A stretch of 64,000 nucleotides of DNA from the NCBI GenBank assembly GCA_965238005.1, contig OZ250165.1, positions 1,408,001-1,472,000 of the forward strand, given 5' to 3'. Position numbers: made by a program. Shown here in pieces: positions 21,001-24,000 of this stretch; within the stretch, counting starts at the first letter, position 1; the number at the start of each line of letters is the position of its first letter. The stretch is from Longimicrobiales bacterium. GTDB lineage: Bacteria; Gemmatimonadota; Gemmatimonadetes; Longimicrobiales; Gaopeijiaceae.

Positions 21001-24000
21001 TGCGGCCCCGTGCGTCGTCCGCCGCTCTCTGCTCGGCTTCCAGGCGCGCCTTCGCCTCCCGGATCGCCGCCAGCCGGTCCTCGCGCCGCTTGAGCTCCTC
21101 CGGCACCTCGTCTCCGCATGCTTCCTCGCCGTAGCGCTCGTCTTCCGCTTCGTCCACCGCCTCGGCCCTCTCCAACAGCCCCCGGATCTCCGCCTCCAGC
21201 CGAGGCTCCCCGGTCACCATCCGGCCGTAGCTCATCGCCTTGCGCTTGTTCGCGTTCGCCCGAACCTTCGTCCCGTCCACCGACACCCTGCCAAGCCCCG
21301 CCAGCCCCAAGGCCCGCGCGAGCATCACCACCTCCACAAACACCGCCCGGAAATCCCCGAGATGGCGCTTGCGGAACTCGCACAGCGTCCGGTGCTTCGG
21401 GAAGTTCTCCGCCGCCAGCATCCGAAACGCGACATCCTCCTCCAGCTTCCTCGCCATCTTCCGCGACGAGAAGGTGCCCGTCGCATACGCGTAGATCAGC
21501 ACCTTGACCATCATCCGAGGGTCGTACGGCGAGTTGCGCCGCCCGTCCCCCCGGTACCGCCCGTAGAACGCGCTCAGCTCCACCGCGTCCACCAGGTCGC
21601 TCACATGGTGCGCCAAATGACCCTCCGACACCCACTCCCGAAGATCCGGAGGCAGCAACAACATCTGCTCCGGATCGTACGGTCGAAATGTCGTTCCCAT
21701 TCACCCCCCTCGGTGATCCGCAAGCCTTCCCAATGCCTTCGCTACCACCAAAGATAGCCGCCGCAGGGTTCTGCGGCGCAGACTCCTAGATGAGCTTTCC
21801 TTCCCGTCGAGGTTCCTTCCGGGAAGGGTCGCTCGATCAGTACCTCAAGGAGATCAGCCAGTATCCGCTGATCGACAAGGCCGAAGAGGTACGCCTCGCC
21901 AAAGGCATTCGGCGGGGCGAGGAAGAGGCCCTGAACAAGCTCGTCCGCTCCAACCTCCGATTCGTCGTCTCGGTCGCGAAAAAGTATCAGAACCAGGGCG
22001 TACCCCTCTCCGATCTCATCAACGAGGGGAACCTCGGCCTCATTCGGGCCGCTCACAAGTTCGATGAGACCAAGGGCATCAAGTTCATCAGCTATGCGGT
22101 GTGGTGGATTCGGCAGGCCATTCTACAGGCGTTGGCAGAGCAGAGCCGGATCGTACGGGTCCCCCTCAATCGGGCCGGAGCTCTCCATCGGATCGGACGA
22201 AGGAGCTCGGCTCTTCTGCAGGAGTTGGGACGGGAGCCCACTGTAGAGGAGCTCGCCAACGATCTCGACATCTCGGAAGAGGAGGTCGAGCGTACGCTGG
22301 CGATATCCCAGTCCCATCTATCACTCGACGCGCCCATTACACCGGGTGAGGACAACCGGCTCCTCGACTACCTGCCGGACCAATACTCCCCGGGACCCGA
22401 AGACGAAGCTTACGAGCACGCCCTGAAGGAGAGCGTGGAAGATGCCCTCTCCACGCTCAAGGAGCGTGAGGCGAAGATCCTTAGGCTGTACTTCGGACTC
22501 GACGATCAGGAGCCCATGACGCTGGAGGAGATCGGGTCGTTGCTGGGGATCACCCGAGAGAGGGTGCGGCAGATCAAGGAGAAGGCGCTACTACGGCTCC
22601 GACATGCGTCCCGGGCCCGCTTTCTGGAGACGTACTTCCAGTAGAAATGCGTAGCTGACAGAGACGTCCGGCGGCCCGGCAGGATCCGTCTGCTGAGACA
22701 CGACGATCGGGTATCTCGTCCGGTCGAAAACCCGTGGAAACGCTGCCCTTTCCCCCGTTGACACCCCCTGTGGCCGCTACTATCCTTTATTGCTCTGTCG
22801 TTCAACAACTCGTGGGAACACGGTGAAGACATACACTCCGAAGGCAGACGAGGTCGAGCGCGCCTGGTGGGTCGTCGATGCCGAGGGAAAAACCCTGGGT
22901 CGACTCGCCACCGAGATCGCTCGGATTCTTCGTGGCAAACATAAGCCGATGTTCACGCCCCACCTCGACGTGGGAGATTACGTCGTGGTGATCAATGCCG
23001 AGAAGGTCACGCTGACCGGCAACAAGGCGGATCAGAAGACCTATTTCAGGCACTCGGGATACATGGGCAGCGAGAGGCACATCCCTTTCCGGCGTATGAT
23101 CACGAACCATCCGGATCGGGTGATCGAGTTGGCCGTCCGGGGCATGCTTCCCAAGAACACGCTGGGGAGGCACACGCGTAAGAAGCTGAAGGTCTATGCG
23201 GGTGCGGATCACCCGCATCAGAGTCAGCAGCCGCAGCCCCTGGAGATCTGAGCGGAATCGGAAACGATTTGATGGCGGGAAACAGCATTCAGACCGTAGG
23301 CCGGCGGAAGACCGCCGTCGCCCGCGTGATGCTCAAGCCCGGCAAGGGTGAGTGGTCGGTGAACTCGCGTCCGCTGGCCGAGTACTTTCCCCGTTCTACC
23401 CACCAACAGCGTATCGAGCAGCCCCTCAAGGCGGTGGAGATGGACGGGCAGTTCGATATCCGGGTCCGCGTCCGCGGCGGTGGGCCCACGGGTCAAGCCG
23501 ACGCGCTCCGCATGGGCATCGCAAGGGCCCTGGTGGAGCACGACGAGGACCTGCGCTCGGTGCTCCGGGAGGGGGGCTTCCTCACCCGAGATTCGCGAAA
23601 GGTGGAGAGGAAGAAGCCCGGTCGCCCCAAGGCGCGGAAGCGCTTCCAGTTCTCCAAGCGTTAAACCGTCGAGACGAAGAGATACATGCAGCAGCAGGTG
23701 GGCCTGAACGAACTGCTCGAGGCTGGCGTCCACTTCGGACACCAGACCCGCCGTTGGAATCCGAAGATGGGGAAGTACATCTTCACGGAGCGCAACGGCA
23801 TCCACATCATCGATCTCCGCAAGACCCTCGATCGCCTGATCGTGGCGCAGGAGGCCGTGCGGGAAGTGGTTCTGGCTGGCGAACGCATCCTCTTCGTCTG
23901 CACCAAGCGGCAGCTACAGGGGATCATCGAGCAGGAGGCCAACGCGTGCGGCGCGTTCTACGTAACCGAGCGCTGGCTCGGCGGCATGCTCACCAACTTT

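Follow-up and report, generated by a model that had tools for sequence, protein, structure and literature searches.

In core Gemmatimonadetes, the primary sigma factor has probably been displaced by a short paralogue and rpoD lost, with living relatives as intermediates. The analysis centred on a short sigma70 gene in a 64,000-nucleotide window (positions 1,408,001 to 1,472,000 of contig OZ250165.1 from a Longimicrobiales bacterium). While gene content, synteny, trees and the promoter pattern are observed, we infer from them the order of events, the functional takeover and the working paralogue. The Gemmatimonadota ancestor would have carried RpoD, with region 1.1 and a long insert, after dnaG, alongside a short paralogue resembling group 2 factors, from the clade that serves as primary sigma in Bacteroidota and Chlorobi. 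Both could have read TTG(ac)-17-TAnnnT, as shared core residues and unchanged promoters suggest. The short sigma would have taken on a growing share of the load, and the folded region 1.1 of RpoD would have been lost in the ancestor of family f11 and this class. Deletion of rpoD from mutS2-dnaG-[rpoD]-DUF164-recJ would have occurred once in the ancestor of core Gemmatimonadetes, and separately in Bacteroidota and neighbours, leaving housekeeping transcription in core genomes to three short paralogues, A, B and C.

If this is true, Bacteroidota, Chlorobi and most Gemmatimonadota use a different paralogue as their primary sigma, rpoD disappeared on at least two occasions, and each step can be seen in living lineages, hinting at how a transcription gene that is normally essential could be replaced. 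Since some genomes combine both sigma types with a single promoter type, the role of region 1.1 becomes testable. According to the accessible text of PMC12478191, E. coli sigma70 without region 1.1 remains on the elongating polymerase, so sigma exchange may differ here.

The short sigma gene and its relatives

The sigma gene, of the clade we call A, and its neighbours are as follows.

19269..20015, + strand: lepB (signal peptidase I), immediately 5′ of clade A in 18 of 30 named loci
20090..20117, + strand: predicted native clade A promoter, TTGCGC-16-TATCAT, matrix score 11.8
20176..20180, + strand: stranded Shine-Dalgarno-like GAGGG, anti-Shine-Dalgarno duplex -6.1 kcal/mol
20181..21789, strand not assigned: IS1182-type element, with CTAG at 20181-20184 and 21786-21789
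20378..21700, - strand: transposase of this element, 440 aa, DUF772 and DDE_Tnp_1/1_6
21790..22644, + strand: short sigma70 of clade A, 284 aa, regions 1.2-4, from Pfam, relatives and trees
22758..22786, + strand: rplM promoter, TTGACA-17-TATCCT, with TTGAC, TA, C and T invariant in 8 of 8 aligned sequences
22823..23251, + strand: rplM (L13), first of the run rplM-rpsI-rpsB-tsf-pyrH-frr-uppS (genes other than rplM named by reading translations)

The clade A protein enters region 1.2 at residue 14 and continues through regions 2, 3 and 4 (Pfam), without region 1.1 or the non-conserved insert. Only 13 residues precede region 1.2, and because an in-frame TAG lies immediately 5′ of the ATG, an N-terminal extension is impossible. 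The first-pass annotation had described four group 1/2 sigma70 proteins that begin at region 1.2, no region 1.1 in any housekeeping-type sigma, and no full-length RpoD. All of this was borne out: tblastn recovered four short sigma70 genes and no RpoD, PF00140 matches also numbered four, and region 1.1 is missing from the window gene and its three paralogues alike. Their stop-to-stop frames span 284, 304, 339 and 356 aa; in the proteins as called, region 1.2 starts at residues 14, 30, 9 and 9. With four such genes, clade A is not the sole housekeeping-type sigma here. Against the RpoD_Cterm model (TIGR02393, cut-off 354) the four score 266 (clade A), 241, 219 and 213 bits, compared with 352-381 for the RpoDs of relatives that keep this gene ("keepers"), and none reaches the RpoS, SigB, SigC or SigD cut-offs. 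The top structure matches are SigA/RpoD entries; among the best 60 of 63 matches, no molecule name pointed to a solved Bacteroidota-type sigma.

By sequence, we assign clade A to the Bacteroidota/Chlorobi sigma-A clade and not to truncated RpoDs. In the careful tree, 14 RpoD rows separate from 54 short rows at 100/100. Clade A groups with the FCB rows at 98/94, with two other short paralogues inside, and a single clade for all Gemmatimonadota sigmas is rejected (p-AU 8e-76, for a group named after the first tree had been viewed). With no outgroup beyond the RpoD and RpoS of E. coli and with long branches joining at the root, the short clade may be an ancient truncated rpoD duplicate. Vingadassalom 2005 and 2007 are reportedly papers on the Bacteroidota primary sigma. 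Like clade A, Bacteroidota sigma-ABfr is without region 1.1, has a short N-terminus and sits in the same clade, and Bacteroidota sigma-A shares the motifs KFISYAVWWIRQxILQALAEQSRIVRxPLN and TRERVRQIKEKA. However, the Bacteroidota/Chlorobi-side genomes checked carry one such gene (4 of 4), whereas 2-4 paralogues occur here and A can be lost. The accessible text of PMC6847099 and PMC12632263 presents the lack of 1.1 in sigma-ABfr as a feature of a single sigma and does not speak of a separate rpoD having been replaced.

Comparison with group 1 factors such as E. coli sigma70 (PMC4598750, in the part available) reveals the same promoter geometry and the core readers WWIRQ and RERxRQ, but RpoD has region 1.1, the non-conserved insert and a place after dnaG, and clade A has none of these. 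Group 2 factors (RpoS, mycobacterial SigB, cyanobacterial SigB-E), which by that source's definition accompany a group 1 factor and are non-essential, resemble clade A in having regions 1.2-4 without 1.1 and several paralogues per genome. They differ in being accessory to group 1, of which no gene is left here, although in the keepers the short sigma does stand beside one. With no group 1 gene, the short set would have to supply the essential function.

The bare observation may already be in print, as Iyer and Aravind 2012 are said to have possibly noted the missing 1.1 in the Bacteroidetes-Chlorobi-Gemmatimonad lineage. A search at the level of listings, supplements aside, turned up nothing published on the housekeeping sigmas of Gemmatimonadota or on rpoD displacement in FCB. 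The accessible text of PMC12641261 (section 17) and 10.64898/2026.02.09.704077 contained nothing on the topic, and a term search of PMC8407463 gave no matches; sigma trees in paper supplements could bear on novelty.

The dnaG locus and the lineages that keep RpoD

The order dnaG-rpoD-DUF164 has been described in several phyla (PMC3372290, in the part available). In core loci, rpoD is gone from its place after dnaG in 25 of 25, with DUF164 next in 24 of these 25; rpoD lies immediately 3′ of dnaG in all 24 keeper loci where dnaG is visible. As first annotated, the window sigma gene lies ahead of rplM and not after dnaG, which is elsewhere in this genome and is followed by the DUF164 zinc-ribbon gene, with no sigma there. 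RpoD-lineage matches occur in 0 of 131 core genomes compared with 18 of the 20 others of the phylum; the two misses are loci cut by contig ends.

The earlier count of PF03979 (region 1.1) extends to 0 of 61 class genomes against 6 of 14 controls, but it does not mean that the whole class is without RpoD. Two families of the same class, f4 and f9, have both RpoD and the short sigma: an RpoD-lineage gene with an open frame of 442-557 aa is present in 13 of 13 and 2 of 2 genomes, right after dnaG in all 8 loci examined. Sister lineages carrying both sigma types had not figured in the first-pass annotation. Clade A stands alongside RpoD in the keepers at 67-78% identity. Within families, A is better conserved than RpoD in f11 (96 versus 89%, 10 of 10 pairs) and f9 (99 versus 80, 1 pair), worse in f13 (83 versus 91, 3 pairs) and equal in f4 (88 versus 87, 6 pairs) and f12 (95 versus 93, 1 pair), the pairs not being independent.

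PF03979 matches 5 of 5 keeper RpoDs from f12/f13, 0 of 10 from f11 and 0 of 6 from f4/f9. By this measure region 1.1 is intact in the basal families and undetectable in the three nearer ones. Since the profile also misses a Krumholzibacteriota RpoD (L138) whose N-terminus aligns with region 1.1, the reading of an eroded 1.1 leans partly on inspection by eye and a negative hhalign result. An f4 motif, SEAIDRAILDLR, was considered as a remnant region 1.1 helix and found unsupported (hhalign probability 0.3%, E 0.21). An RpoB insertion considered as compensation for lost 1.1 simply co-occurs with the loss, and served us as a clade marker.

Outside the phylum, the phyla of L036, L030 and L039 yielded the RpoD lineage in 0 of 151, 0 of 61 and 0 of 61 genomes, respectively; in the phylum of L052 it scored above the cut-off in 59 of 61. 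Most genomes in the analysis are MAGs, and these four counts come without completeness figures. The RpoD lineage is absent from the Bacteroidota, KSB1 and Latescibacterota samples and retained by Krumholzibacteriota. Together with its absence from core Gemmatimonadetes, this implies at least two losses. The same absences would fit one early loss, with the short form ancestral to FCB and a full rpoD reacquired in the keepers, where horizontal transfer would have placed it in the dnaG operon. We consider such a regain highly improbable: the RpoD of the keepers occupies the slot described for other phyla, its subtree matches the RpoB tree, and the nearest named relatives of f4 RpoD are Gemmatimonadota, Glassbacteria, Krumholzibacteria, Eisenbacteria or unassigned bacteria. 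Moreover, the core loss would remain a second, separate loss. In the RpoB tree (one gene, quick method, root chosen by us), the core clade is nested among keepers with SH-aLRT 100; the branch joining f11 to the class reaches only 90.

Promoters

Core promoters had been described as TTGAC-17-TAyCTT, unlike those of Bacteroidetes. The motif is above chance but is not a distinct TAyCTT type: the literal pattern precedes 0 of the 4236 genes called by our own script, and by sequence the signal is a canonical sigma70 promoter, TTG(ac)-17-TAnnnT, the same in RpoD keepers. TTG-N20-TAnnnT occurs at 140 sites in 2254 upstream regions, whereas the adjacent spacings give 48 and 77 and ten others 22-32; in 1308 tandem leaders it occurs 67 times sense and 6 times antisense. 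Looser TTGAC-16/18-TAnnnT gives 75 sense versus 29 antisense among the 4236 genes, and the commonest -10 after TTGAC is TAGCTT (6 sites). A trained matrix gave 110 versus 10 of 1230, a partly circular figure because TTG-N20-TA was its seed and the sense set its training data. Cleaner tests are the spacing profile and an unseeded alignment of rplM leaders, in which TTGAC, TA, C and T are invariant across 8 of 8 sequences; TTGAC-16/17-TAnnnT precedes rplM in 15 of 15 further genomes.

The extended -10 TG is not enriched (55 sense versus 47 antisense). HMIE is the extended -10 contact of E. coli sigma70; clade A reads NRAG in its place, in line with the absent TG enrichment. Nor is there a preference for -6T or -5G (27% and 29% versus backgrounds of 19% and 31%), or for -36T (12%). 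G is common at -10 and -9 (27% and 20%).

The contrast with Bacteroidetes was upheld for the promoters, which lack a TTTG tail, and the short sigma form itself is common to Bacteroidota. The TTTG / TAnnTTTG elements of Bacteroidota promoters are not typical here: TTTG-N14..26-TAnnTTTG occurs once in 2254 upstream regions, and TAnnTTTG alone leaves a slight trace (22 sense versus 8 antisense). TTG-N20-TA falls inside the Bacteroidota promoter as quoted in the text available, TTG-N17-23-TANNTTTG, and so keeps the same spacing register. A TTTG-less precedent is Chlorobaculum tepidum, whose SigA groups with the Bacteroidetes sigma and has a mapped -10 of TA[ATC][ATC][AT]T (accessible text of bioRxiv 10.1101/172254). 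Start sites were mapped there, whereas promoters here come from sequence and have G common at -10 and -9. Since near-identical recognition motifs coexist here with canonical promoters, neither loss of 1.1 nor these motifs would explain TAnnTTTG, and the origin of this Bacteroides promoter becomes testable. In practice, Gemmatimonadota should, in contrast to Bacteroides, accept promoters of the sigma70 type.

The working paralogue and the IS1182-type element

The window gene had been considered the likely primary sigma, partly from its place before rplM. That place is not supported as a marker of the primary sigma. Sigma-rplM adjacency occurs in 8 of 30 named Gemmatimonadota loci, lepB being the more conserved upstream neighbour, and rplM has its own promoter; in genus g2 the sigma slot is empty, and 3 of the 4 loci have lepB right next to an rplM promoter whose TTGACA-17 is intact. 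On sequence grounds, clade A as primary sigma is doubtful. The 12 g2 genomes yielded its orthologue in 0 cases, and in genus g16 (5 of 5 genomes) it stands at 34-36% identity, has lost internal sequence and differs in the -10 motif. Mean identity within f1 is 68% for A, compared with 90.5 for B and 88.6 for C, over 55 pairs in which genus g3 supplies 7 of the 11 genomes. Since A can be lost in this family, the task of reading its housekeeping promoters must fall to B and/or C. Among the others, B was not found in 3 of 5 g16 genomes searched, nor C in 1 of those 5.

That A is instead the sole primary sigma, a shortened RpoD moved before rplM with B and C as non-essential group 2 factors, seems to us unlikely. 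A is the orthologue of Bacteroidota sigma-A, with near-identical 2.3-2.4 and 4.2 motifs, has the top RpoD_Cterm score of the four, retains an intact frame and persists in 170 of the 201 genomes from the order, with 85-93% identity in many close kin. It is also best conserved between Gemmatimonadales-like genomes and f2 (81 versus 68 and 68, 4 pairs), so much of the class may still use A as its primary sigma. Yet the keepers carry A alongside full RpoD, and its loss in g2, decay in g16 and lower identity in f1 all speak against the sole role, as do the element before its ATG and, weakly, a codon-adaptation percentile of 10 versus 88 for B, on a narrow range in which rpsB and tsf stand at 69 and 68. 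We tentatively suggest that core Gemmatimonadetes have no fixed primary sigma and that three interchangeable short paralogues, each losable, share housekeeping transcription by reading one canonical promoter. If so, the essential role would have moved from RpoD first to A and then to B/C inside a single phylum with the promoter unchanged, and the famous Bacteroides sigma would be a former accessory factor.

The 1.6-kb element, unmentioned in the first-pass annotation, sits between the promoter and Shine-Dalgarno sequence of clade A and its ATG, which directly follows the final base, 21789. It has a DUF772 + DDE_Tnp_1_6 transposase, a domain set that we take to carry the name IS1182, together with inverted ends and a short target duplication. 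The predicted promoter is now 1.67 kb from the ATG; a 5-sequence alignment (4 relatives) revealed no conservation of it. The stranded GAGGG pairs near the genome median (-6.2 kcal/mol), compared with -1.9 for the present pre-ATG sequence. An outward promoter in the element end was rejected (best matrix score -0.6 in the last 300 nt; none by consensus scan). The element as cause of the shortened N-terminus is also out, since TAG abuts the ATG with or without it and relatives free of the element mostly start 14-24 codons before region 1.2. With A severed from promoter and ribosome site in this assembly, C1 or B probably carries the load.

The element could be an assembly error or minority allele, uninformative on the role of the gene, which we regard as possible but less probable. 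The 44 near-identical full-length copies in the genome could mislead assembly, dnaG is broken by a frameshift in the same assembly, which points to errors, and 0 of 30 related Gemmatimonadota loci have a transposase. An RNA-run contig aligns from CTAG into the clade A gene with 4 letters over, too short to judge. Conversely, no empty-site joint was among the joints listed in the contig-level alignment, a listing that left out 72, and the CTAG duplication is clean and the same as at other copies. Such an error would touch the element only; the g2 and g16 evidence is independent of it.

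Short sigma factors and the vacant rpoD position

The genome (G000) contains four short sigma70 genes of the group 1/2 type, called here A, B, C1 and C2.

Window 21790-22644, + strand: A, sigma70 of 284 aa; Pfam matches cover region 1.2 (residue 14 onwards) and regions 2, 3 and 4
Contig 4764632-4765531: B, short sigma70 paralogue
Contig 4781460-4782320: C1, short sigma70 paralogue
Contig 1985595-1986455: C2, short sigma70 paralogue

Since an in-frame TAG lies immediately 5′ of its ATG, A cannot be longer, and the stop-to-stop frames of the four genes span 284-356 aa. The first-pass annotation had described short sigmas without region 1.1 and no RpoD, which holds for this genome: region 1.1 is absent from all four proteins, and none reaches the RpoD_Cterm (TIGR02393) cut-off of 354. 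The region 1.1 profile (PF03979) matched 0 of 61 class genomes, versus 6 of 14 controls. The nearest named relatives of A are from Longimicrobiales and other Gemmatimonadota (67-92% identity), followed by Latescibacterota, Calditrichota, KSB1, Ignavibacteria, Chlorobi and Bacteroidota (56-63%), and in nearly all of them the start codon is 14-24 codons ahead of region 1.2. Iyer and Aravind reportedly may have recorded the missing region 1.1 in Gemmatimonadota already in 2012. Some short paralogues are recent duplicates, with two adjacent B-like genes in G005 (G005:C1:3028307-3030413) and two C copies in G060, as in G000, where C2 has no predicted promoter (matrix score -3.0).

In G000, the gene next to dnaG, ~20 bp further on, encodes a DUF164 zinc-ribbon protein, and recJ comes after it; the order dnaG-rpoD-DUF164 is described for several phyla (PMC3372290). 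Searching 81 genomes with PF00140 revealed frames of 549-612 aa in other classes of the phylum. These are real RpoDs, since they lie directly after dnaG and score 352-381 bits on TIGR02393, versus at most 270 for short sigmas. In a 151-genome search, the RpoD lineage was found in none of the 131 genomes of the core families (f1, f2, f3, f5, f6, f7, f8 and f10) and in 18 of 20 genomes of families f4, f11, f12 and f13, both misses being cut at contig ends. Two families inside the class keep RpoD: f4 in 13/13 genomes (12 over the cut-off, one cut; 11/11 without the unpublished G018 and G022) and f9 in 2/2 (337-350 bits). None of 25 core dnaG loci has rpoD after dnaG, DUF164 being the next gene in 24, while rpoD follows in all 24 keeper loci that include dnaG, and DUF164 is found further along in 12 keeper loci. 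Keepers also carry an A orthologue (67-78% identity) plus other short paralogues; region-1.2 genes number 6-8 in f12/f13 genomes of 2.3-3.9 Mb (G062, G064, G066, G068, G070 and G072).

The dnaG gene of G000 (contig 162179-163977) is broken by a frameshift, probably an assembly error, into frames of 464 and 135 aa; relatives have a single frame of ~600 aa. The DUF164 protein (contig 160836-162158) ends in an acidic tail of ~200 aa with a run of >20 glutamates.

Probable displacement of RpoD and the inferred order of losses

We consider it likely that a paralogue displaced the primary sigma factor, with a separate rpoD loss in core Gemmatimonadetes. In both sigma trees (a quick one of 118 rows and a careful one of 69 rows, hand-picked per group with long or decayed rows omitted), dnaG-linked RpoDs and E. 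coli RpoD separated from all short sigmas (100/100). A clustered with short sigmas of Bacteroidota, Chlorobi, KSB1, Calditrichota, Latescibacterota and Krumholzibacteriota (98/94), and B and C formed a sister pair (100/97). A single clade of all Gemmatimonadota sigmas, which truncation inside the phylum would need, was rejected (p-AU 8e-76, for a group chosen after the first tree had been viewed). Given long branches and an outgroup of two E. coli sequences, these trees cannot place the first origin of the short clade.

In an RpoB tree (29 rows, quick method, root set by us on G117 and G118, tip G029 unpublished), f12 and f13 branched first, then f11, then f4 with f9, then the core clade (support 100), and the RpoD subtree had the same order. 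Since the core is nested among keepers, its rpoD loss is separate from that of Bacteroidota. Among genomes of unstated completeness from other phyla, no RpoD-lineage match was found in the phyla of L036 (Bacteroidota side, 151 genomes), L030 (Latescibacterota, 61 genomes) and L039 (KSB1, 61 genomes), and matches exceeded the cut-off in 59/61 genomes of the phylum of L052 (Krumholzibacteriota).

PF03979 matched 5/5 RpoDs from f12/f13, 0/10 from f11 and 0/6 from f4/f9, a profile that is not decisive as it also misses the Krumholzibacteriota RpoD; no GxLTY motif was seen by eye in f4/f9 RpoDs. We infer that region 1.1 decayed first and that a single rpoD deletion came afterwards. The short sigma was more conserved than RpoD in f11 (96 versus 89, 10 pairs) and f9 (99 versus 80, 1 pair), less conserved in f13 (83 versus 91, 3 pairs) and about equally conserved in f4 and f12. 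Such within-family conservation lends modest support to a handover before rpoD was lost. Acidic residues dominate the N-terminus of f4 RpoD (L158-L172), which also has an invariant motif, SxAIDxxILxLR, without recognisable kinship to region 1.1.

RpoB has an insertion of 120-160 aa after a TPVFxG motif in 16 of 17 core genomes parsed, the remaining one showing the same profile-match break; no f4, f9, f11 or f12 keeper has it.

Contig 3347095-3351258: rpoB of G000; insertion compared over loci L227-L254

The insertion thus marks the branch on which rpoD was deleted. Its site resembles the Thermus beta-i12 position.

In the open-access literature searched, we found no description of a short sigma coexisting with a true RpoD, of stepwise rpoD loss, of the empty slot or of loss of A.

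Candidates for the primary sigma factor

The proposal that A, the gene ahead of rplM, is the primary sigma is doubtful given an IS element before its ATG, its absence from genus g2 and its decay in genus g16. In this assembly, the element (IS1182-type, bearing CTAG at each end and present in 44 full copies genome-wide) adjoins the ATG with its final base. It separates A from the predicted promoter TTGCGC-16-TATCAT (matrix score 11.8) and strands its GAGGG site (anti-SD -6.1 kcal/mol before, now -1.9). No outward promoter was found in the element (best matrix score -0.6), which brought an 8-bp hairpin that now precedes the start of A. The insertion is in 0/30 related loci; among named related loci, rplM adjoins A in 8/30 and lepB in 18/30. 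A second copy (window 27507-29116) lies in the opposite orientation at the uppS stop codon, where it separates uppS from the gene that follows in a run that is normally essential.

The evidence from g2 and g16 is independent of the IS. Of the 201 genomes searched across the order, 170 yielded A (three of them unpublished); in g2 the count was 0/12, and lepB there abuts the rplM promoter directly in 3/4 loci. In all five g16 genomes, A is 34-36% identical and internally shortened, with an altered -10 motif. These genes (L312-L316) keep an open frame of ~260 aa, have lost part of regions 2.4-3 and read YAHYWVRRA at the -10 motif in 4/5; either decay or a new specificity could explain them. Comparison of 17 genomes holding A, B and C gave identities of 68, 90.5 and 88.6, respectively, within f1 (55 pairs, biased in that 7/11 genomes are from genus g3); 40, 56 and 82 from f1 to the one f7 genome; 84, 85 and 82 within Gemmatimonadales-like families; and 81, 68 and 68 from these to f2. 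In close kin, A identity is 85-93%. A is therefore well preserved in many lineages, close kin included, but some can do without it.

C1 has a strong predicted promoter (score 17.9; rplM 18.1), B has the better codon score, and among the five g16 genomes (94-98% complete) B was not found in three and C in one. A is probably not the sole primary sigma in the family of this genome. That none of A, B and C is fixed in that role is a possible but less favored reading.

Promoters across the proposed handover

The first-pass annotation read the promoter as TTGAC-17-TAyCTT, a literal consensus that occurs before 0/4236 genes. An unseeded word-pair scan recovered TTGA-19-TAGC and related pairs. TTG-Nx-TAnnnT peaked at x=20 (140 sites, versus 48 and 77 at adjacent spacings and 22-32 at others), with a strand bias of 67 sense versus 6 antisense. 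A matrix built from 226 sites, of which 135 have spacer 17, gives TTG(c/a)(c)-17-TAnn(T)T; -8T stands at 46%, and there is no signal for -36T, -6T/-5G or an extended TG. In 8/8 sequences aligned ahead of rplM, the TTGAC, TA, C and T positions do not vary, and TTGAC-16/17-TAnnnT occurs in 15/15 further genomes, of which six are RpoD keepers, five lack A, one has a decayed A and three are others. Since keepers, genomes without A and the decayed-A genome share this pattern, the promoter is canonical and unaltered across sigma handovers. Bacteroides sigma-A lacks region 1.1 and reads TTTG/TANNTTTG (PMC6847099, PMC12632263); compared with Bacteroidota promoters, the TTTG tail is missing here, although the spacing register is the same. 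Chlorobaculum tepidum, with a related sigma and mapped starts, has a tail-less -10 (10.1101/172254).

Since WWIRQ (region 2.4) and RERxRQ (region 4.2) are common to A, B, C and RpoD, each short sigma could read the canonical promoter. Region 1.1 is a DNA mimic that autoinhibits free sigma (PMC4598750). As group 2 factors function without it, a takeover would be possible without rewriting promoters.

The top signal of the unseeded scan was an intergenic palindrome of ~29 bp, TACGTAT-N15-ATACGTA, at about nine places in G000, possibly the target of a recombinase or a regulator.

G000 contig near 1017600, 1259470, 1541140, 1703250, 4023330, 4278720, 4558720, 4637250 and 4664810: palindrome sites
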